Positions 377-25,919 of a stretch of DNA of 26,465 nucleotides are shown here, one piece after another. How positions within the stretch are numbered: the stretch's first letter is position 1; each line of letters starts with the position of its first letter. The notes under the pieces are model-generated. The model did not search any database. It had not been told where the DNA came from and saw nothing but the letters and a program-made list of their open reading frames with translations. Both the position numbers and the translations under genes were made by a program. The stretch is from contig JAUSHG010000036.1 of NCBI GenBank assembly GCA_030648695.1, positions 1-26,465 on the forward strand, read 5' to 3'. Source of the stretch: a bacterium. GTDB lineage: Bacteria > Patescibacteriota > Minisyncoccia > Phycocordibacterales > UBA10002.

Positions 377-2857
377 TTATTCCAGTTTTTTCATCTCATC
401 CCAGTTTTTGCCGACACGCGCCTCAACCTCAATCGGCACCCCTTTTGACAGTGCCTCGGGAAGCACTCCCTCCATAATCTCCTGTATCTTTTTTCCGATT
501 TTTCCGGCCTGCCCTTCCTTCACCTCAAAGACGAGTTCATCATGCACCTGCAGAATGAGTGACGCCTCTTTTCCTAGTTTTTCTTTTTGGAAATACCCAT
601 CCACGCGCACCATGACAAGCTTGATGAGGTCTGCGGCTGTTCCCTGCAGAGGAGCGTTAATGGCCGCCCGCTCGGCTGCGGCGCGGATGAAAGGAATATG
701 GGAGCGAATGGCCTCATGATACCGTCGTCTGCCAAACAGCGTCTCGGTATATCCCGATGCCGCGGTATCCTTCTTTACTTTCTCCAAGTACGCGGCGAGC
801 TCGTGAAAATCACTAAAGTACTTGTCGTAATACTGCTGTGCTTCCTCTCGCGACACCGCGCTCCCGCCTTCCTGAAGGGCCTGACGCAGAGAATTCACTC
901 CCATGCCATAGAGCATGCCGAAGTTAATAACCTTGGCCTGCCGCCGCATGTCCTTGGTTACCTGTTCGGGGGGAACATCAAATACCTGCGCGGCCACCGC
1001 CGTGTGCACGTCCTCTCCACGCTTGAAAATCGAGATAAGTTTCGTATCGCCCGAAAGAATAGCCGCCACACGAAGTTCAATCTGCGAATAATCAAGGGAA
1101 AGGAGCACATTCCCCTTCTCGGCAACAAAGGTCTTGCGGATGCGCCTGCCAAGCTCTGTCTGAATGGGAATGTTCTGGAGGTTCGGATTCTGCGAGGCCA
1201 TGCGGCCAGTTGTGGAGCCGGATGAGAGAAGTTGTGCGTGCAAACGCCCGTCCTTCCCCACCATCGCAGGGAGTGTATCTATATAAGTAGAAAGTAATTT
1301 TTGAAACTCGCGGTACTCCAGAATTTCCTTGATAATCGGGTGCATCTCACGCAACTTCTCAAGTTCGCTTTCGCGCGTGGAGAGTGCGCCGCCTGCGGTC
1401 TTCTTCTGCCGGAGGGGCTTCAATCCCATTTTCACAAACAGTACTTCGCCCAATTGTTTGGGAGAGTTGATGTTGAACTCCGCTCCGGCAAGCTTCCATA
1501 TTTCTTTTTCGCGCTTGCTTAACTCACGGTGGTACTCTTTGGAAAGTGAAAAAAGGTACGCCACATCAAGCGCAACTCCCCGCTCGTTCATCCGCTTCAA
1601 TACCGGCAGAAGTGGTCGCTCTATTTCCTCAAACACACGTGCCAGATTCCGCTTTTGTATCTCCGCAAATACGGTCTCACGCGCCTTATTCCAATCACGC
1701 GTTTGTGCGAATCCCAAGATATCGTCCAAGGTCGGGTTGGTGAGGTTTGAGTTGATAAGCCAGAGCGCCACCGCAGTTTCCGCCAATTCCTCTTCGGAAA
1801 TTCCTGTGGCTGCCAATACGTCATTAAAAGACGCCTGCTTGGCCTCCCCTCCTTTCAAAGGAGGGGATTGAGGGGTGGTGGTAGAGGTGGAATTAAGTGG
1901 GGTGTTGTTTTGAATTGCCCCCACCGCACTCTTCAACCTCTCTCCGAGAGTCCGAAACTCAAGTTCGGTAAAAAGCGCCTCGGCTTTCGGGAGGTCAATG
2001 CTTTCACACCAGAGTTTTGCCGGAAACGAAAAGGCAATGGGCGCATCACGCCTGATGGTCCCCAACAGTTTGCTAAACTCTGCATCTTCTTTTCCTTTTT
2101 CAAGTAAGCCAACCACGCGCTCTTTGATGCCCGCTTTGAGTAGGGTGACGCGGTCTTTTTTGAGCGTTTTATAGATGTTCTCAATTGAACCAAATTTTTG
2201 AATCAGCTCGGTTGCGGTCTTGTCCCCGATGCCGGCAATGCCTTTGATGTTGTCAGACGGGTCGCCTTTGAGCCCTTTAAAATCCGGAAGCAACTCCGGA
2301 GGAAACCCATAGCGCACATTGACGGCCTCCTCATCATAGAGAATCGTGTCATTGATGCCTTTTTTGAGCGTAAATACCTGCACCCGTTTGTTGTCCACGA
2401 GTTGCAGTGTGTCCATGTCGCCGGAGGCGATGATAATGGCGGCTTCGCCACCTTTGACCTTTGACCTTTGACCTTTGACCTGCTCTACGATGGTGCCGAG
2501 AATGTCGTCCGCTTCAAATCCTTCCTTGTCGTAAATCGGAATGCCAAACACGCCAAAGATTTCGCGCGAACGAATCATCTGCGACACCAGCGTCTCATCA
2601 GCTTTTGGGCGTCCCGCCTTGTAGTCCTTGTAGGCCTCATGCCGAAAGGTCTTCTTCGGCAAATCATAAGCCGCGGCAATATAGTCGGGATGGAAAGTGG
2701 AAATAATTTTGATGAGCATGGCGGCAAGGCCGTAGAGACCGCCTGTCGGCTCGCCGCGGGAGTTGCTAAATTCAGGCAGGGCATGATACGCGCGGTGCAG
2801 TATGGCGTGCGCGTCTATGAGTACGAGCTTCTTGGGTTCCGGCTCCTTTTTTGCCAT
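377..2857 (-). CDS. polA: DNA polymerase I (5'-3' exonuclease plus polymerase domains, no clear 3'-5' exonuclease domain)
   Basis: N-terminal LVLIDAHAILHRAYHALP, EADD, GDMD, GDPSDNIKGIAGIG motifs; polymerase motifs TGRMASQNPNLQNIP, DYSQIELR, AKVINFGMLYG, QVHDELV. Confidence 0.98.
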   Translation of the reverse strand: MAKKEPEPKKLVLIDAHAILHRAYHALPEFSNSRGEPTGGLYGLAAMLIKIISTFHPDYIAAAYDLPKKTFRHEAYKDYKAGRPKADETLVSQMIRSREIFGVFGIPIYDKEGFEADDILGTIVEQVKGQRSKVKGGEAAIIIASGDMDTLQLVDNKRVQVFTLKKGINDTILYDEEAVNVRYGFPPELLPDFKGLKGDPSDNIKGIAGIGDKTATELIQKFGSIENIYKTLKKDRVTLLKAGIKERVVGLLEKGKEDAEFSKLLGTIRRDAPIAFSFPAKLWCESIDLPKAEALFTELEFRTLGERLKSAVGAIQNNTPLNSTSTTTPQSPPLKGGEAKQASFNDVLAATGISEEELAETAVALWLINSNLTNPTLDDILGFAQTRDWNKARETVFAEIQKRNLARVFEEIERPLLPVLKRMNERGVALDVAYLFSLSKEYHRELSKREKEIWKLAGAEFNINSPKQLGEVLFVKMGLKPLRQKKTAGGALSTRESELEKLREMHPIIKEILEYREFQKLLSTYIDTLPAMVGKDGRLHAQLLSSGSTTGRMASQNPNLQNIPIQTELGRRIRKTFVAEKGNVLLSLDYSQIELRVAAILSGDTKLISIFKRGEDVHTAVAAQVFDVPPEQVTKDMRRQAKVINFGMLYGMGVNSLRQALQEGGSAVSREEAQQYYDKYFSDFHELAAYLEKVKKDTAASGYTETLFGRRRYHEAIRSHIPFIRAAAERAAINAPLQGTAADLIKLVMVRVDGYFQKEKLGKEASLILQVHDELVFEVKEGQAGKIGKKIQEIMEGVLPEALSKGVPIEVEARVGKNWDEMKKLE
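1845..1879. repeat. Palindromic REP-like insert in frame within polA (encodes TPQSPPLKGGE)
   Basis: tcccctccttt-c-aaaggagggga is a perfect inverted repeat at 1845-1867, in the inter-domain linker. Confidence 0.75.
2451..2481. repeat. Perfect 7-bp tandem repeat (cctttga x4 plus cct) inside polA
   Basis: Read directly; encodes VKGQRSKVKG. Confidence 0.95.
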
Positions 2858-2861
2858 GCGC

Positions 2862-3317
2862 TCATTCTAGCATTCTCCCGCTTCTGTGGAATTCAATACT
2901 TCTTGTATGGTCATCTACAAATTCAAACTGAAGCTTGATGTGGTCAGGAGGTAGTAGGTCCGCGACACGCTCGGCCCATTCAATGAAGATAAGATTTTTA
3001 GGGTCGGTGAGGAGCTCGGAGAAGCCGAGTTTGCGCAGGTCGTCTGCGTTTTTCAGACGATAGGCATCTACATGTATCAGTTTCTGAAAACTTTTAACTT
3101 TTAACTTATAACTTTTAACTATCCAGAAGGTGGGGCTGGAAATACGTTCAGAAATGCCGAGGGCGCGGGCGGCGGCCTGCACGAAGGTGGTTTTGCCGGC
3201 TCCCAAGTCGCCGTAAAGACCGACCACCGTAGCTTGCGACGAGCTCGGTTTTAACCCCGATACGAAATCTGAAGCGGCCTGTTGAAAGGATTCAAGATTA
3301 TGGATTTGTATGGGCAT
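2862..3317 (-). CDS. tsaE: tRNA threonylcarbamoyladenosine biosynthesis ATPase
   Basis: LYGDLGAGKTTF Walker A, SPTF, HVDAYRL and IEWAE motifs. Confidence 0.96.
   Translation of the reverse strand: MPIQIHNLESFQQAASDFVSGLKPSSSQATVVGLYGDLGAGKTTFVQAAARALGISERISSPTFWIVKSYKLKVKSFQKLIHVDAYRLKNADDLRKLGFSELLTDPKNLIFIEWAERVADLLPPDHIKLQFEFVDDHTRSIEFHRSGRMLE
3089..3120. repeat. Heptamer tandem repeat (aactttt-type x4.5) inside tsaE
   Basis: aactttt-aactttt-aacttat-aactttt-aact; encodes KSYKLKVKSF. Confidence 0.9.
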
Positions 3318-3328
3318 AATACCTACTA

Positions 3329-3409
3329 TCTAATACCAAATCTCGAAAAATACCAAATAAAGAACATGCAATGTTGACGCTTTTTCGAGATTAGATATTG
3401 GATATTAGA
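3329..3409. repeat. Empty inverted-arm element (AATAC/AATATC family) between the divergent tsaE and ATPase genes
   Basis: aatctcgaaaaa (3339-3350) pairs perfectly with tttttcgagatt (3381-3392); flanked by taatacc and gatatt repeats. Confidence 0.75.
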
Positions 3410-3441
3410 GCTTCCACTCATTGTGCTACAATGTGGTGGTT

Positions 3442-5112
3442 ATGCCTACCTTTGATGATGAAAAGCAGGAAAAAGAGCTTTCCGAAATTAAACTTCAGGA
3501 AGAGGAAGACCTTATTCGTCTGCTTGCCCAGAAAAACGGACTCCCCTACATAGACCTCGTTCCGGTGCCGATTGAGACCGATGCCTTGCGCCTTCTGCCC
3601 GAATCCGAAGCACGCGAAGTCAAGATTGCTTCCTTTGCCGTAAACGGGAAAAAGGTGGGTGTGGCGGTATTCTCTCCGAACAAAGAAGGAGTAACCGCGG
3701 CGATAGAGAAAATCACGAAAGCCGGATTTACTCCGACCCTCTATATGGCCTCAACCCGCAGCTTGGAGAAAGCGTGGAGCCGCTACAAGGAACTTTCCGA
3801 AATGACCGTAACGCACGAGGGTGAAGTGGGGCTTGAAAGCGGCATCATTGCCGACACCGCGGCCAAGGTACAGACGCTTCCCGAACTTGTGCCGCTGCTT
3901 GGAGGAATCCTCAACGACAAAGACCCAAACCGCGTCTCCCGTTTTGTGGAGCTCATTTTGGGAAGTGCTATCGCTCTTGACGCTTCCGACATTCACATTG
4001 AGCCCGAGGCCTCCTCTGTGCGCCTGCGGTTTCGCCTAGACGGCATTCTGCAGGAGGTATTGAGTTTTGAGCGTGCCATCTATGCACTCGTGAACTCGCG
4101 CGTCAAACTGCTTGCCGGACTTAAACTAAACGTCAAATCCGAAGCGCAAGACGGACGTTTTAGCGTCAACCTCAAGGACACCGATATTGAAATCCGCGTG
4201 TCTCTGCTTCCCGGGGCATACGGCGAATCCATCGTACTTCGCGTCCTCAACCCCAAAACCATCGCGGTTCCTTTTGAAGATCTGGGGCTTCACCCGCGAC
4301 TACTTGAAGTGGTGGAACAGCAGATAGCCAAGCCGAACGGAATGCTGCTTACGACCGGTCCGACCGGAAGCGGCAAGACCACCACGCTCTACGCATTTTT
4401 GCGTAAAATCTACAGTCCCGGAGTCAAGGTCATCACCATTGAAGACCCGATTGAGTATCACCTCGCGGGTATTGTGCAGACGCAGACCGACAAAGACAAG
4501 GGCTACACCTTTGCCCAAGGCCTTCGCTCGGCACTGCGGCAGGACCCGGACGTTTTGATGGTCGGTGAAATCCGCGACGAAGAAACCGCCGAAGTCGCCA
4601 TCAACGCCTCGCTCACCGGCCACCTCGTATTCTCCACCCTGCATACCAACAACGCCGCCGGTTCGTTCCCGCGTTTGATTGACTTGGGAGTCAACCCGAA
4701 GGTCATCAGTTCTGCCGTAAATCTTTCACTCGCCCAACGGCTCGTGCGCAAGCTCTGCGCCGCGTGCAAAGAAGAAACAACGCCGACCGAGAAAGAAAAA
4801 GCGCAGATTGATACGGTGCTGCGCGACATGCCGAACACATTCGCTCCGAAAGAAATTGGAAAAATATGGAAGCCGAAGGGCTGTGAGAAATGCAACAACA
4901 CCGGATACAAAGGCCGCACCGGTGTCTATGAAGCCATACAGGCGGATGCCGCTATTGAAAAGATAATCCGCGAAAACCCGAGCGAACGCGAAATTGCCGC
5001 CGCCGCGCGCCCACAGGAAATCCCCACCATGCAGGAAGACGGCGTCCTTAAGGTGCTCTCCGGCATTACTTCGCTTGAGGAACTGGAGCGGGTGGTGGAT
5101 TTGACCAAATAA
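3442..5112 (+). CDS. GspE/PulE/PilB-family type II secretion / type IV pilus assembly ATPase
   Basis: Walker A GPTGSGKTT, TIEDPIEY, LRQDPDVLMVGEIRD, TGHLVFSTLHTN, zinc-binding CAAC and CEKC. Start moved to ATG 3442, which follows TGcTACAAT. Confidence 0.93.
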   Translation: MPTFDDEKQEKELSEIKLQEEEDLIRLLAQKNGLPYIDLVPVPIETDALRLLPESEAREVKIASFAVNGKKVGVAVFSPNKEGVTAAIEKITKAGFTPTLYMASTRSLEKAWSRYKELSEMTVTHEGEVGLESGIIADTAAKVQTLPELVPLLGGILNDKDPNRVSRFVELILGSAIALDASDIHIEPEASSVRLRFRLDGILQEVLSFERAIYALVNSRVKLLAGLKLNVKSEAQDGRFSVNLKDTDIEIRVSLLPGAYGESIVLRVLNPKTIAVPFEDLGLHPRLLEVVEQQIAKPNGMLLTTGPTGSGKTTTLYAFLRKIYSPGVKVITIEDPIEYHLAGIVQTQTDKDKGYTFAQGLRSALRQDPDVLMVGEIRDEETAEVAINASLTGHLVFSTLHTNNAAGSFPRLIDLGVNPKVISSAVNLSLAQRLVRKLCAACKEETTPTEKEKAQIDTVLRDMPNTFAPKEIGKIWKPKGCEKCNNTGYKGRTGVYEAIQADAAIEKIIRENPSEREIAAAARPQEIPTMQEDGVLKVLSGITSLEELERVVDLTK

Positions 5113-15323: not shown

Positions 15324-15391
15324 CACTTTTGACGATTGACTTTTAACGCGTCTTTCACCTGTTAAAAGTTAATGGTTAAAGGTTAAAAGTG
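15324..15391. repeat. Empty inverted-arm element (TTAAC family) upstream of rpmH
   Basis: cacttttgac...acttttaac pairs with gttaaaagt...gttaaaagtg. Confidence 0.8.
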
Positions 15392-15398
15392 TTTTTGT

Positions 15399-15548
15399 AT
15401 GAGCTTCACCTATAAACCAAAAAGGAAAAAAAGGGCGCGCACGCACGGATTCCGCTCCCGCATGAAGAGTGCAACCGGAAGAGCGGTACTCTCCCGCCGG
15501 CGCCGCAAAGGCCGCCACACACTGACCGCAAGCCGCAAGCGTACCTAA
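15399..15548 (+). CDS. rpmH: 50S ribosomal protein L34
   Basis: Manual translation [49 protein letters not shown]; canonical position between dnaA and rnpA. Confidence 0.97.
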
Positions 15549-15558
15549 CGGTCATTGT

Positions 15559-15637
15559 TAACTATTAACCATTAACTTTTGACTTTTAACAGCCCGAAAA
15601 CTTTCTGTTAAAGGTTAATTGTCAAAAGTTAATAGTT
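15559..15637. repeat. Empty inverted-arm element (TTAAC family) between rpmH and rnpA
   Basis: taactattaaccattaacttttgacttttaacag pairs with ctgttaaaggttaattgtcaaaagttaatagttg. Confidence 0.85.
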
Positions 15638-16013: not shown

Positions 16014-16760
16014 ATGTTCGCCCTGCTTAAGAGTGTTTTCTATATTCCTCTCTATAACGCGCTCATTCTCCTCATAGGAAGGATGCCCGGTTTTGGAGCG
16101 GGCGGGGCGGTGATTCTCCTCACTCTGGCCATTAAAATCATTCTCTTTCCGCTTTCACAGCGCGCCTCAAAGTTCCAATTTGAGATGAAGGCGCATGAAG
16201 CCGAGCTGAACCGCATTAAGGAGCGCTTCAAGGGAAATCGCGAGGAGCAGGGCCGCGCCATACTCGCGTTCTACAAAGAGAAAGGCATCAACCCATTCAT
16301 GGGCATTTTGCCTGTGCTCATTCAAATTCCCATTGTTATCGGACTCTATTATGTGTTCTACAAGGGAGGATTGCCGGGGGTAAACGAAGAACTGCTCTAT
16401 TCGTTTGTCCCGGTTCCCCCCGTTGATATGCATTTTTTCGGGATAGACATCTCGGAAAAGAGCATACTGCTCGCGGTATTGACCGGCGCCTCGCAATTTT
16501 TGCAGGGGCATTTCGCCTCCCCTCCTCCGCCCGCACCAAGTTCGGGAAAACCCTCATTTCAGGAAGACCTTGCTAGGGGCATGCGGCTTCAGGTAAAGTA
16601 TGTTCTGCCTCTGATTATGGCCTTTGTGGCCTATCAGGTGTCGGGAGCGGTAGCGCTGTATTTTATTACGAGCAACCTGTTTACCGTTTGTCAGGAGCTC
16701 TACCTACGCAAGAAGTTTAAGAAGGAGGGACATCTGACGCATCGGGGAGCATCCGACTAA
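16014..16760 (+). CDS. yidC: Membrane protein insertase YidC/Oxa1 (short form)
   Basis: AVILLTLAIKIILFPL, YKEKGINP, LIQIPIVIGLY, ALYFITSNLF. Confidence 0.95.
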   Translation: MFALLKSVFYIPLYNALILLIGRMPGFGAGGAVILLTLAIKIILFPLSQRASKFQFEMKAHEAELNRIKERFKGNREEQGRAILAFYKEKGINPFMGILPVLIQIPIVIGLYYVFYKGGLPGVNEELLYSFVPVPPVDMHFFGIDISEKSILLAVLTGASQFLQGHFASPPPPAPSSGKPSFQEDLARGMRLQVKYVLPLIMAFVAYQVSGAVALYFITSNLFTVCQELYLRKKFKKEGHLTHRGASD

Positions 16761-16850
16761 TCCGAATGTTCCGAATATCCGAATGGTTACGAATGCAGTC
16801 CTTCTTATTCGCAGGTATTCGTATATTCGTAGAGATTCGTAATTCGTATT
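16750..16850. repeat. Empty inverted-arm element (CGAAT family) between yidC and jag
   Basis: A ccgaat array (16750-16795) and an attcgt array (16807-16850); the yidC stop lies in the first arm and the jag ATG follows the second. Confidence 0.85.
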
Positions 16851-16852
16851 GT

Positions 16853-17308
16853 ATGACTAACGAAGAAATCAAAAAAACAATACAAGAACTACTCTCCCGC
16901 ATGGAGATTGCCTGCGAGTCCGTAGAGTGTGTTGATGAGGATTCGGACCGGCGGCGCTTTTCAATCCGCACTCCCGATTCGCATCTTCTTATCGGGCCCA
17001 AAGGCGCACACCTGTTTGCGTTCAATCATCTGGTGCGAAAAATTGCCGGAAAAGGCGAGGAGGGCGAGTTTCTCTTCACGGTTGACGTGAACGACTATCA
17101 CGAAGCCGCCCGCGAACGCCTGCATGCGCTTGCAAAGGTGATGGGAGACCGCGCCCGGTCGTTTAAGGCGTCAGTGGAGCTGGAACCCATGTCATCCTAT
17201 GAACGGATGGTGGTGCACACGTTTTTTGAAAATGCAGGAGATATTAAGACCGAGTCAACCGGAGACGGGGAACGCCGGAGGGTGGTTATCAAATACACTG
17301 GAGAGTAA
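16853..17308 (+). CDS. jag: Jag/EloR/KhpB-like RNA-binding protein (KH plus R3H, no Jag_N domain)
   Basis: LLIGPKGAHL (KH GxxG), VDVNDY, MSSYERMVVH (R3H), TESTGDGERRRVVI. Start moved from 16766, which translates the repeat. Confidence 0.88.
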   Translation: MTNEEIKKTIQELLSRMEIACESVECVDEDSDRRRFSIRTPDSHLLIGPKGAHLFAFNHLVRKIAGKGEEGEFLFTVDVNDYHEAARERLHALAKVMGDRARSFKASVELEPMSSYERMVVHTFFENAGDIKTESTGDGERRRVVIKYTGE

Positions 17309-17325
17309 TGGTTAGGAGGAGCTCG

Positions 17326-17752
17326 TAGCTTCTTAGCTGATTAGCTTTTTAGGGAAGAAATCATCTTGTTAAGCATTCGCATCACTTCAAGAAGCAAGCT
17401 GTCAATTTTTTGCAAATCTAAACCCTTTCCCCAAGGCAAGCGACGTACAATTTCAAGCTGGGTTTCCAGTTCAGCTCCGGAACCGTAAGCAATTAATAGG
17501 AACTGACAAAACTCCTTTTTTCCTCCGCGACGCCTTCCTTCTGCAATGTTAGAGGGGATAGAAACTGAGGCGCGTTTCATTTGCGACGAAAGTCCGTACA
17601 GTTCACTTTTCGGAAATTGCTCAGTAAGGGCATATAATTCAATGACGGCGTCTATACCTTTCTGCCACACGATTAATTCTTTATATGAATGTATTTCCAT
17701 CACGGTTTTTTAATTTCCCTAATAAGCTAAAAAGCTACCAGCTAATAAGCTA
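17326..17752 (-). mobile_element. Filled inverted-arm element A (AGCT family) carrying a four-helix-bundle gene
   Basis: Arms 17326-17352 and 17727-17752 are near-perfect inverses. Mobility is inferred, not shown. Confidence 0.6.
17341..17700 (-). CDS. Four-helix-bundle protein (23S rRNA IVS-encoded / Avd-like family)
   Basis: SYKELIVWQK, FPKSELYGLSSQMKRASVSIPSNIAEG, AYGSGAELETQL. Confidence 0.92.
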   Translation of the reverse strand: MEIHSYKELIVWQKGIDAVIELYALTEQFPKSELYGLSSQMKRASVSIPSNIAEGRRRGGKKEFCQFLLIAYGSGAELETQLEIVRRLPWGKGLDLQKIDSLLLEVMRMLNKMISSLKS

Positions 17753-18946
17753 ATCTTCAAATTCCACGCTCCAAAGCGTTCCGTCATTTTTGTTGGTAAA
17801 GATAAGGAACTTTTCATCAGGCGAGAGTTGCGGATGAACGAGGTCAATGGAGTCGCCCCCTTCACTGCTTATATCAAGTATCCGCTCCCCCACTCCGGTT
17901 TCCGCATCTATTTGCCATAGTTCATCGGTAAAAGAGATAACTCCCTGATACCAGGCATCGGGGTAGCTTCCTCCGGGAAGAGTGAGCGGAACCCCGCAGT
18001 AAATATCTTCATTTGATTTTGCCCAGACGCACTTTTCGGGAAGTGTTTTGTGCTGCAGGGCCGAGGCCTTGTTTGTTTTTCGGTCAAGCATCTGCAGGAT
18101 AATTCCGCCGCCCGAACTTTCGGAAAAGAGTATCCGCGACAGGTTTCCGTCGGGAAGCGCCGTGAGACCCGCCACATCGCGAATAAGCGGCTCCATTTCC
18201 CCGCCCCCGCTTGGAACCGACACGAGCATCCCGTCTGAAATAGCCGATGGCTTGGTGAGGAATGCAATACGGGAGGATGTAGTCCAGAGCGGAATCCATT
18301 CCCGAAGCGGAGACGCAAACATCTGTATTTTCCCGCTTCCGTTAAAGGCCGCGCGGACTCCCACTCCTCGCCCTCCTTCTTCGCGCATGTAGATAAGTTC
18401 CTTTCCGTCCGGCGAGAGCGCCACCTCCCGTATATTTCCGGGGAGGAAGGTCCCTTCAAGGGTTCCTTCGCCCTCTGCTTTTGGCTTGAGCGTTGCGGAA
18501 TAGGTCTGAATGGTTTCATTGTCTTCGCCAAGGTAGCGGGCAAGTACGGAGGCCCCGTCTTTCCGCCACAGCGCCTCATAGATTTTGGGTATCGTCGTAT
18601 TGGTCAGCCGCCGCACCACCCCGCCGGTTGCCGCAATTTCATACGTGTTGCCCGTGGCGCGGTCCAGGTACCGGACGCGGACGCTTTCATCCCGCCCTCC
18701 GACAACGGCGCCCGCTATCGGAGTAAGTGTTAGGCGGCGCAGTATGGGGCCTCCGCGCGTATCCGAGGGCAGTGCTACCGGTTCTTCCGTTTCCTCTTCA
18801 AATCCACCTTCTTCCGTTTCAGGAAACTCCCCCTCAATCGGCAGTTCGGCTTCAGGAGTTCGGAAAAAGAAAAAGTAAATAAGCGCCGCAATGACTGCGA
18901 GCACAATAACCGATACAACAATGGTGACGGTAGTTTTTCGCGACAT
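17750..18946 (-). CDS. Membrane-anchored hypothetical protein, probable beta-propeller
   Basis: N-terminal TM segment, acidic linker, repeated ALSPDGKEL and LSPDEKFLIF TolB/WD-like motifs. Confidence 0.75.
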   Translation of the reverse strand: MSRKTTVTIVVSVIVLAVIAALIYFFFFRTPEAELPIEGEFPETEEGGFEEETEEPVALPSDTRGGPILRRLTLTPIAGAVVGGRDESVRVRYLDRATGNTYEIAATGGVVRRLTNTTIPKIYEALWRKDGASVLARYLGEDNETIQTYSATLKPKAEGEGTLEGTFLPGNIREVALSPDGKELIYMREEGGRGVGVRAAFNGSGKIQMFASPLREWIPLWTTSSRIAFLTKPSAISDGMLVSVPSGGGEMEPLIRDVAGLTALPDGNLSRILFSESSGGGIILQMLDRKTNKASALQHKTLPEKCVWAKSNEDIYCGVPLTLPGGSYPDAWYQGVISFTDELWQIDAETGVGERILDISSEGGDSIDLVHPQLSPDEKFLIFTNKNDGTLWSVEFED

Positions 18947-18947
18947 G

Positions 18948-19874
18948 TTATTTGCACTTTTTCCCCAACGGGTCGGTTAGCACAATAATATCAGGTAGTG
19001 TCCCCGGCTGGTCATAGTGCAAATATCTACACCCCCCTTTGACGAGAGCTATTTCACGTTGCAGGTCATCGTACATTCTTCTTGTTGCTGCATATAATTC
19101 ACCGGACTCTTCGGTTTCACCGGCGCGCTCAAGATTAATAATTGGCTGGACGTTTTGAGCGATTACGCTGAGTTTTTTCTCGGCTTCGTTCCAATCTCGT
19201 CTCTGCATGAGGTCTTGTATCCCATTATCATATGCGTCTCTTGCCGTTCGTGTCTGATTCTGTGCCATCAGGAGAAGCCCCGCCTTATCGGTCGCTCCTT
19301 CGGTCTTTGCTTTCGCAATGGCCGCATCCACCGCATTTATCGCTTTAGTCGCGTCATTTTTTATGTCCGTATGTGTTACTAGCGCGAGCGGTATTTCCTT
19401 TTTTATAACCCGATCAAATTTTAAGGTAAGGTCCAGATCTCGTCCCAATTGCGGGTTAATGAGATTTACCAGCAAATAACTGGAATATACGATAATAATG
19501 CCGCCGAGTGCCCGTAGAATAATGGCCTTACCCTCCATATGTCCAAGGATAGAATCCGTGAAAAGCAGAGTGAACCCGCCGCGCACAATGGAGAACACCG
19601 CCAAAAGTCCGGCAATCGCGATGCCTGTCGTGTAGAGAAACGAGAGGTATTTTGAAAGGCACTGGCCGGCTTCAAGCTCCGCTTTTGAGCAGCCGAAGAA
19701 TCCCAGTCGTTCGCCGCCGCTCGTGAGGCCGGTGTCAATCTGAGTGAGAGGCACAAAATTGCCTTGTGCTGAAACAAGTGAGGGAAAGATGCTCACGCCG
19801 AGTATAAATAACACCACTATGAGAGTGAGCAGAAGAACCGTCTTGGAAAAATTGTGCGGGTGAAACAGACGCAT
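18948..19874 (-). CDS. Pilin-like (TrbC/VirB2-type) membrane protein with an extended C-terminus
   Basis: Signal-like N-terminus ending VSAQ, two hydrophobic helices (GIAIAGLLAVFSIVRGGF and ALGGIIIVYSSYLLVNLINP). Confidence 0.65.
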   Translation of the reverse strand: MRLFHPHNFSKTVLLLTLIVVLFILGVSIFPSLVSAQGNFVPLTQIDTGLTSGGERLGFFGCSKAELEAGQCLSKYLSFLYTTGIAIAGLLAVFSIVRGGFTLLFTDSILGHMEGKAIILRALGGIIIVYSSYLLVNLINPQLGRDLDLTLKFDRVIKKEIPLALVTHTDIKNDATKAINAVDAAIAKAKTEGATDKAGLLLMAQNQTRTARDAYDNGIQDLMQRRDWNEAEKKLSVIAQNVQPIINLERAGETEESGELYAATRRMYDDLQREIALVKGGCRYLHYDQPGTLPDIIVLTDPLGKKCK

Positions 19875-19879
19875 AGATG

Positions 19880-20932
19880 TTATCTAGTGGATTCCGGAGC
19901 CGAGTCGGGGAGCGAAGAGAACTCTCGTTCCTTGAAAGAAACGGAAAGTGAAGCGTCATCCGCCTGGAATGTTTTAGTTGTGTGCTGTGCGGTAAGTCCG
20001 ATAAAGGCGGTGCCGCCATCCCCGGAGTTTCTTCGGAGAACAATATCGGACCGTGTTTCGGAAGAAAGTGTCTGATAATTTAGTTTCCAGTCATAGCGCA
20101 GCGCGGCGGTACCTCGGTCAGCGGCTTCAAAAAAGAACGGAATTGCAGAAAGCCGTACTTCGTCACCGTTTAATACCAACTCCCGCGTAAGCGCCTGCTC
20201 AAATCGGATACCGAACAGAGGATGATTTTCATAGAGCAGTATGTGCGGCGCAACCGGCGGAATGGTTATCTCCGCGGCGGCCAGGAGCGCATGGTCAATT
20301 GTTTCCACCTCAACCGAAACCGTTTTTTCCCGCATGGGCACCGCGCCCTGAAACACAAACAAACTTTTGCCAAAGCCGCTTGAGTCGCCAATCACTTTTC
20401 CGTCTTCTTCCCATGTATATACGAGTTCGCGTTCGGCAAGCCGTTTCCCCTCCGCATTTACAAATAGCGGAATTGCGGCTACGGTTACGCTCCCTTGAAA
20501 CGGAAATAAGGCCTTGCCTTTGTAAAAAGGAGGTGTGTATGAGGAGGACTGCCAAAGGAGTAGCACGTCCGCAGGCCGTATTTTGAACTCTTTGCTTAGA
20601 ATGCGGCCATCCGGCATTTGCGCAATAACAGTGAGCGTAGTTACGCTTCCGGCTTTGCCGGTTTGGAATAAGAAGTGTTTTTCGCCGACACCCCGTTTTT
20701 TGAGCACGCCGTTTATCGTATAGCCAATCACGGCGCTTTGGATATCAACAGCATAGCTTTCAACGTCTACCGAAACTATTTGCTCGGCCCCAGGACGCTC
20801 CGGCGAAAGCGAAACCACGAGAGCATCCTGACCGCCTAATGTCTGCGCGGAGAGCGAAAGCGGCAGGACAAACAAAAAGACAAGCAGGCAAAGAACATAT
20901 GAAAAAAGGAGCGAAAAATATAACTTTTTCAT
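19880..20932 (-). CDS. Secreted hypothetical protein with beta-rich (Ig-like) repeats
   Basis: Signal peptide LSLSAQ; repeated YTWEEDG and YDWKLN strands. Start moved to ATG 20932, 7 nt after TATAAT. Confidence 0.75.
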   Translation of the reverse strand: MKKLYFSLLFSYVLCLLVFLFVLPLSLSAQTLGGQDALVVSLSPERPGAEQIVSVDVESYAVDIQSAVIGYTINGVLKKRGVGEKHFLFQTGKAGSVTTLTVIAQMPDGRILSKEFKIRPADVLLLWQSSSYTPPFYKGKALFPFQGSVTVAAIPLFVNAEGKRLAERELVYTWEEDGKVIGDSSGFGKSLFVFQGAVPMREKTVSVEVETIDHALLAAAEITIPPVAPHILLYENHPLFGIRFEQALTRELVLNGDEVRLSAIPFFFEAADRGTAALRYDWKLNYQTLSSETRSDIVLRRNSGDGGTAFIGLTAQHTTKTFQADDASLSVSFKEREFSSLPDSAPESTR

Positions 20933-21014
20933 CACCTGTATTATACACCACGGCTCGGAGCCGCTGTGCACAGCAATGACGGTAACCACACCTCCCGAAA
21001 AACGGCTCTGAATT

Positions 21015-21139
21015 CTCCCTTTCCTAAAGGGAGCATCCGCCCAACTTTTTCTGAAAAGTGAGGCAGGGAGGGATTTCTAAATCCTCCGCTCCGACTTGAG
21101 TCGGAGCTCCTCCTTTCCGCCAGCTGGCGGAAAGGAGGA
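21015..21139. repeat. Composite cluster of nested palindromes
   Basis: ctcccttt-cct-aaagggag; actttt-tctg-aaaagt; ggattt-ct-aaatcc; gctccgac-ttga-gtcggagc; perfect 32-nt palindrome at 21108-21139. Confidence 0.85.
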
Positions 21140-21164
21140 ATTAAGAGATGCGGAAAATTCCCAA

Positions 21165-21620
21165 CTACGCCGAAGGGCCTTTCGGAGGGGTTCGCCCTTT
21201 TGATGCTACGGTCTGCACCGCCCGCTCTATTTTCCCGCCGATAAGAGGAACACCTCGAAGTGCGGAAGACCCGTCATTGATAACCCACGCATAGGCAATG
21301 TCAAATGTCCATGCGGGAAATACCCCGCCCGTTCCGGCATCTACTGCAGTAGCACCCAGAACACTAAGGGTTAAACGCCAATCCAGCATCCCTTTCATAA
21401 AGAAGAGAAAATAGAGAGCTCCACCCACTGCGAGGTCAACAACAGTGTTAATAGGCAAGCCGATTCCAGTAGCCCCCACTCCCATTTGGACGAGGTCAAG
21501 GAAGATGGCGGCAAGAAAGAGCATGTACCAGCTTCCGGGTGAAAGTTTTGGTTCGGGTTTCCGTGGCGGCGGAGGAAGCGGTCCGCGCGGTCTGTTTTGT
21601 TGTGAGGGTTGAGGAGACAT
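21165..21620 (-). CDS. Hypothetical membrane protein
   Basis: Pro-rich N-terminus followed by several hydrophobic segments; lies in the operon directly after the VirB4-like gene. Confidence 0.75.
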   Translation of the reverse strand: MSPQPSQQNRPRGPLPPPPRKPEPKLSPGSWYMLFLAAIFLDLVQMGVGATGIGLPINTVVDLAVGGALYFLFFMKGMLDWRLTLSVLGATAVDAGTGGVFPAWTFDIAYAWVINDGSSALRGVPLIGGKIERAVQTVASKGRTPPKGPSA

Positions 21621-21693
21621 AGCTGGAAGCTTATTAGCTGGTAGCTTTTTAGCTTTTTAGAAATTTCCTAACAAGCTAATCAGCTACAAGCTA
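21620..21693. repeat. Empty AGCT-family element (cargo-less counterpart of elements A and B)
   Basis: agcttattagctggtagctttttagctttttag-aaattt-cctaacaagctaatcagctacaagcta. Confidence 0.9.
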
Positions 21694-23511
21694 TTGGTTG
21701 CCTTCGGCTGCTTTCAGCTCTGCCTTCGCCGCTTTGATGGCGAGCAACTGCGAGGGGTCGGAGGTGATAATTTGGTCTTCGGTGTAGGAGGCGATAACTT
21801 TGATTGCCACGTGTTTGAGACCTACAAAGAAGAGCCCCTCTCCCACATCGGACTCAAGAAGCAGAAATTTTTCTTCGTCCGTGAGATTGAAAATCTGCTG
21901 GAGACGGTCTACGACCGTTGGCGATTGTTTGAGAAGTATCTGCATGGAGGAGTTGGTGAGAATGGGAAGCCCGTAGGGGGATTTGAGGAAGTCGTCCACG
22001 TCCTGTGTAATCGTGGCAAGACCGAAATAATATTTGCGGCCGCGTTTGGCGAGCCCGAGCAGGAAGGAGGCCGTATCTTCGCTCTTCATGAGCCACCACG
22101 CCTCGTCAATCACCATGAGGCGCTTTTTGAGCTCCCGCCGGATAGCGTTCCAGATAAAGTGCGTGATGAGGTACATGGCTGCGGGCTTGAGCTCATCTTC
22201 CATGTCGCGGAGGGAAAATACAATCAAATTGGCATTGATATCAATATTTGAGGGTTGGTTGATGAATCCCGCCCATGTTCCGCGTGTGTATTTGGACAGG
22301 CGGGTAACGAGCGACTCCCCTCCCCGCATGCCGGCGAGTACCAGTTCAAAGTCGGAGAGAAGCGGCGGCGGAATCTTTGCAAAATCAGAATCGGCGGTAA
22401 TGTCTTTGAGTGCGTAGGTTTCTGTTATAGCGCGGTCAATAATCGCATCTTCTTCGGGAGACAGTCCTCCGAGCATAATGCGGAAAAGCCCGACCAGATT
22501 GATGATGTTTGAGCGCAGGACGTCGGTGGGCGACTCATCTTCGCGCGGAGTCGGAAGTTCAAAGGGGTTGATGTGGTGGGATGAGTTGAGTGAAATGTTG
22601 AAGTATTTACCGCCTACGGCTTCGGCCAGATATTCATACTCGCGTTCGGGGTCAAGCACGATAACGTCAGTGCCAAACATGAGTGAGCGGAGAATCTCCA
22701 GCTTCATCATGTAGGATTTACCCGCGCCCGACTTGGCGAACACCACGGAATTAAAGTTTTCAAGCGAAAAGCGGTCAAAGAGAACGAGGGAAGCATTGTG
22801 CCGGTTGATGCCGTAGAGCACCCCTTTGTTTGAGGTCAGGTCAAAGGAAACAAACGGAAAGACACTTGAGAGGGGCGAGGAGTTGAGTTTGGTATGCACC
22901 AGAAGTTCGTCGTTTCCGAGGGGCATGGTACTCCTAAAGCCCTGTTCCTGCTGGAAGAGCGCGGGTTTGAGAAGCACGAGCTTGGCATCCAAAATGCCGC
23001 GCACCTCGGTTTCCACCTTTTCAAGCTCGGTTTCGTTGTCGGCGTAAATCGTAACGTACATTCCCACTTCAAATATCTTTTCATTGGCCTGCATGAGGTC
23101 ATCGCGCAGTTTTTCCAAATCCTGATACGCAGTATCGAGCGCAGGGTCGCGCACGATGCCCTTGTGTTCGCGTTCAATCATCTGGCTTTGTACCTCTGCA
23201 ACCTTCTTCTGGAATTTACGCAGGACTTTGCCGGTATCAAGCGGATGAATGAAGATGGAAATATCAAACACTTTGTCCAGATTGATGACCGGAGCAAACC
23301 AGCCCTCCGTGAGGTAGCGCGGGTAGGAAATGACGAAAAAGGTGCGGGTTATTTTTCCGCTCACATTGAGCGACTTCGGCGTTACCTTAAGCGCAGCAGG
23401 CGCAATAACATCCTGCAGTTCAAGGGCGCCGGATTGGTAAATCTGCTCGGGCAAAAAGTCCGAGATGTCATCCTGCTTCTTTTTTGGTTTTAAAAAATCC
23501 AATATGCCCAT
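21691..23511 (-). CDS. VirB4/TraE-like ATPase
   Basis: Walker A AKSGAGKS, VLDPEREY, INPF, Walker B MVIDEAW, KRGRKY, TQDV. Confidence 0.92.
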   Translation of the reverse strand: MGILDFLKPKKKQDDISDFLPEQIYQSGALELQDVIAPAALKVTPKSLNVSGKITRTFFVISYPRYLTEGWFAPVINLDKVFDISIFIHPLDTGKVLRKFQKKVAEVQSQMIEREHKGIVRDPALDTAYQDLEKLRDDLMQANEKIFEVGMYVTIYADNETELEKVETEVRGILDAKLVLLKPALFQQEQGFRSTMPLGNDELLVHTKLNSSPLSSVFPFVSFDLTSNKGVLYGINRHNASLVLFDRFSLENFNSVVFAKSGAGKSYMMKLEILRSLMFGTDVIVLDPEREYEYLAEAVGGKYFNISLNSSHHINPFELPTPREDESPTDVLRSNIINLVGLFRIMLGGLSPEEDAIIDRAITETYALKDITADSDFAKIPPPLLSDFELVLAGMRGGESLVTRLSKYTRGTWAGFINQPSNIDINANLIVFSLRDMEDELKPAAMYLITHFIWNAIRRELKKRLMVIDEAWWLMKSEDTASFLLGLAKRGRKYYFGLATITQDVDDFLKSPYGLPILTNSSMQILLKQSPTVVDRLQQIFNLTDEEKFLLLESDVGEGLFFVGLKHVAIKVIASYTEDQIITSDPSQLLAIKAAKAELKAAEGNQ

Positions 23512-23946
23512 AGCTTGTAGCTTCTTAGCTGGTTAGCTTTTTAGGGAAGAAATCATTTTGTTAAGCATCCGCATCACTTCAAGAAGCAAACTATCAATCT
23601 TCCGAAAATCTAAATCTCTTCCCCAAGGCAGACGACGAACGATTTCGAGCTGCGTTTCTAGTTCTGCACCCGAACCATAGGCAATTAGCAAGAACTGACA
23701 GAATTCCTTTTTACCTCCGCGTCGCCTTCCCTCCGCAATGTTTGAGGGAATAGATACGATGGCACGTTTCATCTGGGATGCAAGTCCGTACAACTCACTT
23801 TTGGGAAATTGTTCAGCAAGAGCATATAGTTCAATTACACCTTCTATACCCTTCTGCCATACGATTAACTCTTTATACGAGTGTATTTCCATAACAATTT
23901 TCTTTATTCTTTCCTAATAAGCTAAAAAGCTACCAGCTAAGAAGCT
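23511..23946 (-). mobile_element. Filled inverted-arm element B (AGCT family) carrying a four-helix-bundle gene
   Basis: Arms 23519-23544 and 23922-23946 form a 25-bp stem with one bulged base. Mobility is inferred. Confidence 0.6.
23533..23892 (-). CDS. Four-helix-bundle protein, paralog of 17341-17700 (110 of 119 aa identical)
   Basis: Direct alignment of the two translations shows 9 substitutions. Confidence 0.92.
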   Translation of the reverse strand: MEIHSYKELIVWQKGIEGVIELYALAEQFPKSELYGLASQMKRAIVSIPSNIAEGRRRGGKKEFCQFLLIAYGSGAELETQLEIVRRLPWGRDLDFRKIDSLLLEVMRMLNKMISSLKS

Positions 23947-24599: not shown

Positions 24600-25098
24600 T
24601 ACGAGAAACGAATCAATATCCGAATAGTCCGAATGTTCCGAATCAACGAATGGATACGAATACTATTATACGTTATTTCTTTTGTTTTCGCGGGTCTAGA
24701 CGCAGAATTCTGATTGGTTTTACATAGCGACAGCGGAAATTAACAAGCAAGCCAAGCTCCACGCCGCTGGCCTGCAGGTAATTTTGAATTTGCCGGTAGT
24801 CGTTGCCTAACAGGACTCTCTTTGCTTTCAACTCCAATGCCACACATCCTTCAATGAGAAAATCTATGATATTTCCAGAATCACCGATGCGGATTTCTCT
24901 CTGATATTCAATTGATTTTTCCTTTAGTTTCTTTTCAAGGCAGTCACCATATTGTTTTTCTTTTCCATAGGGTCCTATCTCATTATGTACATCAAAACAA
25001 ATACCGGTAATATCGTAAGACAAATCCGGGTAAAGAACGTGCGGTTGTGTCTTATTCGCAGCCATTCGGATTATTCGGACAATTCGTTAATTCGGATG
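24600..25098 (-). mobile_element. Filled inverted-arm element (CGAAT family) carrying a GxxExxY gene
   Basis: A ccgaat array (24600-24663) and an attcgg array (25063-25098); 24618-24635 matches the inverse of 25063-25080 at 16 of 18 positions. Confidence 0.55.
24673..25065 (-). CDS. GxxExxY-family protein (PD-(D/E)xK nuclease-like)
   Basis: [10 protein letters not shown] (variant of GxxExxY), [33 protein letters not shown]. Confidence 0.88.
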
Positions 25099-25500: not shown

Positions 25501-25502
25501 GG

Positions 25503-25919
25503 TAGTTATAAGTTAGAAGTTTGTAAGTTATAAGTTCTTTCTAAGAAAGCTGACATATCCGCTTATCATTTTTATCAACTCAACATGTCTCTCAATAATT
25601 TCCCCATTTTTGTAGAATTCCTTTTCAAGGCATACCTCAAGATTTCGTCTCGTTTCCTCTGCTTCGCATTTGGCAGTATCATTTATTATTCGTATTTTTT
25701 CCTTGATGGACTGTTTATTATACGCTTCGGCGATATTGTTAGTAGTAGAGGATGAAGACCTCCGTAACTGGTCAACGCTTCTATACTTTTCGTCCTCAGG
25801 GAATTGCTTTGTTAAATGGAAAACCTCAAGCTCCAATTCTTTTGCCCGCGTATATATCTTTAAATTTTCAAGACCCGTTGCCATAACTTACAAACTTAAA
25901 ACGTATCAACTTTCAACTA
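25503..25919 (-). mobile_element. Filled inverted-arm element C (AACTT family) carrying a divergent four-helix-bundle gene
   Basis: aagtttgtaagttat (25517-25531) is the perfect inverse of ataacttacaaactt (25883-25897), within longer degenerate arrays. Confidence 0.55.
25528..25884 (-). CDS. Four-helix-bundle protein (divergent member)
   Basis: LENLKIY, FPEDEKYRSVDQLRRSSSSTTNNIAEAY, KCEAEET. Confidence 0.85.
   Translation of the reverse strand: MATGLENLKIYTRAKELELEVFHLTKQFPEDEKYRSVDQLRRSSSSTTNNIAEAYNKQSIKEKIRIINDTAKCEAEETRRNLEVCLEKEFYKNGEIIERHVELIKMISGYVSFLRKNL

Follow-up and report, generated by a model that had tools for sequence, protein, structure and literature searches.

The window analyzed here, a stretch of 26,465 nucleotides (nt) corresponding to contig C42 of a bacterial genome assembly (GCA_030648695.1, contig JAUSHG010000036.1), carries two related small genes, termed cargo genes A and B, each of which is enclosed by a pair of inverted arms built from short repeated units. 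Although the two genes have diverged strongly at silent sites, their arms have remained nearly identical. The element is a cassette of the type known as intervening sequence (IVS) in ribosomal RNA (rRNA), located outside rRNA, and the comparison of its arms with silent sites with regard to rate is new. On balance, we consider it probable that A and B are long-separated copies of such a hairpin cassette, the arms of which would act in cis and be kept by purifying selection.

Cargo gene A (17341-17700, minus strand, with an alternative GTG start at 17703) and cargo gene B (23533-23892, minus strand) both encode four-helix-bundle proteins of 119 amino acids that belong to Pfam family PF05635 (23S_rRNA_IVP) and are 92% identical. 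Both open reading frames (ORFs) match the profile of the family over positions 1-106 of 106 with 119.1 and 114 bits, respectively, vs. a cut-off of 33.8 (E 1.2e-34 for A). Copy B furthermore matches XCC0516 (PDB 2GSC), a pentameric four-helix bundle, over residues 6-112 (E 1.8e-20), and has more than 5000 relatives at E ≤ 1e-20 among 8000 candidates scored. The source genome (584 kb in 91 contigs, 50% GC) and its relatives (0.5-1 Mb each) are small, and among public sequences the nearest homologues carry the annotation of groundwater Patescibacteria. From 17.3 to 26.4 kb, the minus strand contains an operon for type IV secretion (PrgI-like, TraC-like, VirB4/TraG P-loop proteins) that is interrupted by small genes. 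Cassette A is situated downstream of an ORF of 398 amino acids and is convergent with jag, while cassette B lies between the TraC-like gene and virB4. Neither is inserted into an rRNA helix as the IVS of 23S and 16S rRNA are. Both share the orientation of the operon, and each fits exactly into a gene junction, from the stop codon of one type IV secretion gene up to where the following gene starts (or ends).

The 5′ arms (17715-17752 for A, 23910-23946 for B) and the 3′ arms (17318-17354 and 23510-23546), all read on the minus strand, are each about 35 nt long and consist of some five units of 7-8 nt, in which a TAGCT core is combined with two to three variable bases. In each cassette the two arms pair over about 25 bp, giving the long and nearly perfect inverted repeat typical of rRNA IVS, with one mismatch and one G-U pair in A (duplex -37.8 kcal/mol) and a single bulge in B (-43 kcal/mol). 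The arms reach into the neighboring genes. In A, the TAG stop of the upstream gene (17750-17752) constitutes the first unit at the very edge of the 5′ arm, while the 5′ arm of B encloses the stop of the TraC-like gene (23937-23939). The 3′ arms hold the last four to five codons of the cargo (SLKS in A) together with its stop, and that of B ends at the start codon of virB4 (ATG, 23509-23511). The arms had been described as non-coding in an earlier, sequence-only reading of this DNA; they are not entirely so, given the cargo end and stop in the 3′ arm and the upstream stop within or next to the 5′ arm.

When 35 nt per arm are compared between A and B, two positions differ in the 5′ arms and two in the 3′ arms, so that 66 of 70 positions are identical. 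An exact 28-mer is shared by the 5′ arms (17718-17745 and 23913-23940). Outside of the AGCT cores, 34 of 38 arm positions are identical (P 1e-4 to 1e-7). The enclosed genes, on the other hand, differ at 59 of 360 nucleotides, with 48.8 synonymous differences over 78.8 synonymous sites (Nei-Gojobori), corresponding to a proportion of synonymous differences (pS) of 0.62, a synonymous divergence (dS) of 1.31, a non-synonymous divergence (dN) of 0.037 and a dN/dS ratio of 0.029. Identity amounts to 0.49 at four-fold degenerate sites and to 0.61 at third codon positions. Had the arms diverged like third positions, four or fewer differences in 70 would be found with a probability of 1.6e-10, and with one of 2e-16 had they diverged like four-fold sites. 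An internal neutral control is provided by the spacer that separates the 5′ arm from the ATG; it has diverged between the two copies and contains indels. With a dN/dS of 0.03 the cargo is under strong purifying selection, so the protein is in use. The duplication itself is old (dS 1.3), yet it postdates the separation from the closest syntenic relative; the pS of 0.62 between A and B compares with 0.83-0.88 for either of them against the syntenic orthologue of B. The sequence-only reading had counted nine residue differences in 119 and ten synonymous differences within codons 1-30, from which it deduced an old duplication under purifying selection, and had set against these an identical 28-mer and nearly identical opposite arms; each of these counts was reproduced (the ten are purely synonymous codon differences), and the deduction agrees with the divergence values given above.

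In order to place this pair in a wider context, PF05635 genes were surveyed in related genomes. A total of 73 such genes from 23 of 41 genomes was obtained, and inverted unit-array arms are present around nearly all of them. All 33 pairs of cassettes with a cargo identity of at least 60%, within as well as across genomes, are saturated at four-fold sites (identity 0.19-0.58), while the identity of their arms ranges from 0.60 to 1.00, and from 0.79 to 0.96 for pairs with more than 75% cargo identity. Syntenic orthologues of B with 89-90% identical proteins occur on contigs L115 and L121. L115 stems from another aquifer; its orthologue shares 89% of the amino acids with B at a pS of 0.88, the flanking virB4 genes differ at a dS of 1.46, and nevertheless 34 of 35 positions of the 3′ arm and about 30 of 35 positions of the 5′ arm are the same. 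The same contig carries a second paralogous PF05635 pair (506-871 and 4745-5107) with 82.5% amino acid identity, a dS of 2.6 and an identity of about 85% between their GTAAC-type arms, a pair that we read as an independent replicate of the contrast between arms and silent sites. An exact search of metagenome contigs with the 28-mer yielded three further contigs with 40-42% GC (L112, L113 and L114). The cargo on L114 shares no more than 60% of its residues with A and B; the 3′ arm of this cassette is complementary to the 5′ arm of A at 36 of 36 positions, and its 5′ arm matches at 33 of 36. L112 and L113 feature a cargo-less hairpin at the orthologous junction between the TraC-like gene and virB4, the arms of which are identical to the reverse complements of those of B at 35 of 35 (for the 5′ arm of B) and 32 of 35 positions, whereas the VirB4 proteins are only 56% and the TraC-like proteins 40% identical. 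In all comparisons arms are more conserved than silent sites, and in some they are more conserved even than the protein. Arm divergence does not track dS, silent sites being saturated where arms are still similar, and the earlier suggestion that the arm sequence itself is constrained is thereby extended from one pair to all 33 related pairs and to other organisms.

The sequence-only reading had left the choice between function of the arms and their active homogenization. Homogenization would take the form of concerted evolution, in which gene conversion keeps the arms of the TAGCT family, more than 40 in number, alike while the cargo, with only one possible donor, drifts. Several observations are in its favor. 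With up to three mismatches, the 28-mer version of the A and B arms occurs nine times in the source genome but is virtually absent from 40 relatives; several members of the family without cargo have arms identical to those of A or B at 28 of 28 positions, so that the perfect match is not unique to this pair; and the 5′ arms of the paralogues (2 of 35 positions differ) are closer to each other than those of B and its orthologues on L115 and L121 (about 5 of 35), at similar cargo identity. In addition, conservation between A and B is unusually high over the final 20 codons of the cargo, with three synonymous differences vs. six to eleven per 20 codons elsewhere, such that the conserved block at the 3′ end extends some 60 nt into the coding sequence and resembles a conversion tract. 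Arms that agree at 35 of 35 and 36 of 36 positions in other organisms of 40-42% GC are, however, beyond the reach of an intragenomic process, 3′ arms are kept across orthologues with saturated dS, and a length of 35 nt is at the lower limit for homologous recombination. Moreover, the four differences in 70 arm positions between A and B (dS 1.3) and the roughly six in 70 between B and its orthologue (silent sites saturated) both fit a single slow clock that runs at least ten times more slowly than that of silent sites. We therefore regard conversion as an unlikely main cause. Because arm conservation crosses genome boundaries, the data favor purifying selection on the arms over homogenization, possibly with some conversion or re-insertion alongside, and of the two options offered earlier the functional one fits better.

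Selection would have to maintain two properties of the arms, namely their mutual complementarity and a repeated core specific for the clade of the cargo. With regard to the former, the 3′ arm of a cassette is the best or a near-best partner of its own 5′ arm (-40 vs. -23 kcal/mol over all cassettes), also when only cassettes of the same cargo clade are exchanged (-46 vs. -30 kcal/mol, 0 of 10000 permutations), and changes in the core of one arm are compensated in the other, TAGGT being found with ACCTA and TAGGC with GCCTA. As for the latter, arm similarity follows cargo similarity (Mantel r 0.33, 0 of 2000 permutations), a correlation that is partly inflated by vertical descent. Arm family is thus distributed non-randomly over the cargo phylogeny. 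Related cargo clades are equipped with related cores (TAGCT, TAGGC, TAGTA). Vertical descent notwithstanding, one junction may be occupied by different combinations of cargo and arms from genome to genome, and a given cargo clade retains its arms across sites and organisms.

The following sequence of events would be compatible with these properties. The cassette would be transcribed together with the operon, and the stem of about 25 bp formed by the arms would loop it out, bringing the flanking stop and start codons together; 44 of 59 cassettes are co-oriented with their surroundings, their 5′ arm containing or lying close to the upstream stop and their 3′ arm lying within a few nucleotides of the downstream start. 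By analogy with the ORF-bearing IVS of rRNA, RNase III, the gene for which is present in the source genome, may then cut the stem. The repeated cores probably also serve as recognition sites for a putative sequence-specific factor. If the arms are the cis-acting part of the element, purifying selection on them would account for their slow change. A number of observations, on the other hand, weigh against this scheme. The few differences between the arms of A and B are not compensated. Cargo-less hairpins of the TAGCT family vary freely at the variable bases, so not every base of an arm is needed, and they occur in both orientations relative to transcription. A signature specific for RNA was not found either: isolated G·U and A·C oppositions on the sense strand are about equally frequent in cassettes (22:20) and in cargo-less hairpins (9:8), although G·U should be much the better tolerated of the two if selection acted on the stem as part of the transcript.

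The last two points favor a serious rival, according to which the arms represent terminal inverted repeats and belong to an element that is mobile at the DNA level. Such an element would resemble a miniature inverted-repeat transposable element (MITE) or a repetitive extragenic palindromic (REP) doublet forming a hairpin (REPIN) with its REP-associated tyrosine transposase (RAYT); the identity of its arms would reflect recent copying or site-specific horizontal spread. A trans-acting factor would recognize the arms in the form of DNA, and the cargo would either represent this factor or be a passenger. The missing G·U/A·C asymmetry fits a constraint on DNA, and so do cargo-less copies in either orientation. 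In the source genome, a periodicity of seven is the dominant repeat signal (1311 windows vs. at most 20 for each of the periods 2-6), and about 295 unit arrays that fall into a few core families are dispersed over the 584 kb. Each of the seven PF05635 genes in this genome, like its only PDDEXK_3/GxxExxY gene, sits between inverted arms, which belong to a different core family in each case except for A and B, so that there is one cargo-bearing copy per abundant arm family and two for TAGCT. The TAGCT family comprises 44 arms, always arranged with the polarity of a hairpin and mostly enclosing short loops (from a few up to some 30 nt) without cargo. As in REPIN systems, then, the repeats that flank the gene constitute a dispersed intergenic family specific to the clade of that gene.

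Occupancy of individual junctions likewise speaks for mobility. Among 30 genomes, the junction upstream of prgI is unoccupied in 11, contains a cargo-less hairpin in 5 and a PF05635 cassette in 10, while 4 feature remnants or are unclear, and the cassettes belong to different families in different genomes. The junction after virB4 holds a cargo-less TAGCT hairpin in the window vs. a GTAAC-armed cassette in L115. The hairpin of the window (21621-21700), located between the stop of virB4 and the start of the next gene, matches the reverse complements of A's arms at 32 of 33 and 27 of 30 positions and fits best as an inverted copy of these. The four genomes of the same genus that lack PF05635 also lack TAGCT arrays. 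A strict rule, by which arm arrays would occur only together with their cognate cargo, is nevertheless only partly true and was abandoned, as genomes G025, G032 and G033 contain TAGCT arrays without an intact PF05635 gene. PF05635 proteins, furthermore, have no known catalytic motif, inspection by eye revealed no target-site duplication at A, at B or on comparison of occupied with unoccupied prgI junctions, and recent copying cannot explain arms shared by A and B at a dS of 1.3. Four Y1_Tnp/RAYT-like genes, an unusual load for a 0.6-Mb genome, were noted in the source genome G000 (C84:335-1051; C19, minus strand, ~3354-4034; C10 ~2510-3205; C21:5192-5863). They encode 223-238 amino acids with the HUH motif NH[FY]H, and each is accompanied by a short perfect palindrome of its own that is unrelated to the unit-array arms; no link between the arms and these genes was found. 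Taken together, mobility at the DNA level is a possibility to be reckoned with, even if in our judgment it is not the likely explanation.

At the prgI junction, the cargo-less hairpins of G008, G004, G010 and G011 (L035, L038, L041 and L043) have arms of about 55 nt with ATACCAAT-type units, and in G011 no PF05635 gene is detectable. Decayed cassettes are seen at the same junction in G033 (L057), where a TAGCT-type 5′ arm is followed by the truncated start of a PF05635 gene, and in G015 (L039), where TAGCT arms surround a remnant of about 40 nt. These two suggest that loss of the cargo can leave hairpins behind. Among contigs assembled from the groundwater metagenome of the source, which were aligned to the region to detect variants with and without cargo, some join a 3′ arm directly to a 5′ arm (e.g., 17352 to 17719 with 8 letters between them). 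Such joints are no evidence of excision, because they cannot be distinguished from other cargo-less members of the family elsewhere.

The sheer number of arrays, which far exceeds that of cargo genes, also invites the view that the hairpins are regulatory structures of the host, conserved for translational coupling, mRNA stabilization or termination, in the loops of which PF05635 and GxxExxY genes have lodged. The upstream stop is part of the arms, which also adjoin the downstream start. Across 54 cassette arms of related genomes, all three frames contain a stop codon two to three times as often as they do after shuffling (43% of 5′ and 31% of 3′ arms vs. 20 and 10%). With units repeated at a period of seven, a stop-containing core falls into every frame. 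Housekeeping genes, too, are located between hairpins of the same family, namely at 15359-15592 of the window (probably rpmH) and in G000 at C82:8312-8718 (rplQ) and C83:2056-2832 (rplP). Many close relatives, however, have the same junctions without any hairpin, so that the host needs none; arm type follows the clade of the cargo and not the junction; and the conservation of variable bases in the cargo-bearing copies is left unexplained. For these reasons we hold this view to be quite improbable. Neighboring hairpins may be inverted copies of each other and then show perfect long-range complementarity, as do positions 3200-3225 and 4643-4668 of C65. The idea that such "empty hairpins" are back-to-back arms of stems enclosing whole genes (26 of 26 complementary positions across 1.4 kb on C65) was rejected, since every junction exhibits the polarity of a hairpin, with an AGCTA-type arm after a TAGCT-type arm, whichever strand is considered. 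The long-range matches are explained by an asymmetric hairpin that is present in two inverted copies, and the genes enclosed are housekeeping genes (L17, L16).

Returning to the reading of A and B as IVS-type hairpin cassettes with selected arms, the best candidate for the factor that recognizes the cores would be the encoded, ring-forming four-helix-bundle protein itself, which may also act on cargo-less hairpins with the same arms. Arms as protein-binding arrays, a speculative notion, are suggested by the clade-specific core, the presence of some four to five units per arm and the existence of pentameric relatives that bind nucleic acid. The number of units with an exact core has its mode at 4 and its maximum at 5-6 per arm, a suggestive correspondence to one unit per subunit of a pentamer. 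A more far-reaching proposal is that the ring reads the 7-8-nt units sequence-specifically with about one unit per subunit, forms an autonomous/non-autonomous pair with the arms, and maintains, regulates or mobilizes the cassette and cargo-less hairpins of the same arm version in the absence of a canonical transposase. We put this forward as a tentative conjecture that stands a rather small chance of being correct.

Besides A and B, the window features two more cassettes, both on the minus strand. A third PF05635 cassette (25502-25911, cargo 25528-25884) contains a distantly related gene between AAGTT/AACTT-type arms, and a PDDEXK_3/GxxExxY cassette (24607-25088, cargo 24673-25065) encloses an unrelated gene between CCGAAT-type arms. 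A TAGCT-type unit array of the same arm family as that of A and B is located at a gene junction at 273-316. In all four groundwater sequencing runs, the summed contig depth at 16532-16914 is 10-20 times that of the neighboring bins, and many contigs end at 16816-16848, next to a CCGAAT-type array at the junction of yidC and jag.

Few unexplained small proteins are as common in bacteria as those of the PF05635 and GxxExxY families, and the sole setting described for them is the IVS of rRNA. The same unit of stem plus gene is common in ordinary operons of ultrasmall groundwater bacteria, and the slow evolution of its arms would mark these as the functional core of the element. A puzzle is posed by a 35-nt arm that is identical at the same junction even though the flanking VirB4 proteins share only 56% of their residues. 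Cognate and non-cognate pairs of arms and proteins are now defined for binding and processing assays. If the ring does read the units, this would provide a function for the widespread "IVS protein" family and explain heptamer arrays in several phyla.

Four known systems invite comparison; searches of the literature yielded no account of cassettes of the present kind outside rRNA. Avd, the accessory protein of diversity-generating retroelements, has a homologous four-helix-bundle fold and forms a basic pentamer that binds nucleic acid together with a partner; the IVS-type homologue XCC0516 is pentameric as well. Neither a reverse transcriptase nor template and variable repeats were seen next to A and B, where the neighbors scanned encode type IV secretion proteins, YidC and Jag; a search directed at reverse transcriptases was not made. 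The intergenic heptamer arrays of cyanobacteria (short tandemly repeated repetitive, STRR, sequences) and the TAACTGA repeats of Beggiatoaceae, cyanobacteria and Bacteroidetes resemble the arms in that stop-rich 7-nt units are repeated in tandem, directly next to start codons (PMC4679880). Unlike the arms, they are mainly direct repeats without an enclosed gene, and a link to PF05635 is not made in that work. With REP/REPIN-RAYT systems the cassettes have in common a gene flanked by inverted short palindromic repeats, many intergenic copies that lack the gene, and a repeat type specific for the gene clade. The enclosed gene, however, encodes a four-helix bundle (or a PD-(D/E)XK protein) instead of a Y1/HUH transposase, and the cargo consists of PF05635 only.

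The closest described object is the ORF-bearing IVS of rRNA, as found in Coxiella burnetii, Leptospira and Xanthomonas and among the rRNA insertions of Candidate Phyla Radiation (CPR) bacteria, which contain PF05635 ORFs as well (PMC11270868). In C. burnetii, a terminal stem of 28 bp with one mismatch and one bulge, within which RNase III cleaves, is combined with tandem heptameric repeats ahead of the S23p ORF (PMC4990558). A and B differ from it by their position between protein-coding genes of an operon and not in an rRNA helix, by a cargo under strong purifying selection in place of a decaying ORF, and by arms that consist wholly of repeat units and belong to a genome-wide family of cargo-less hairpins; excision by RNase III is putative here. 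The PF05635/S23p protein, the terminal stem of about 25-28 bp with its mismatch and bulge, and the heptameric repeats adjoining the ORF are features that both have in common.

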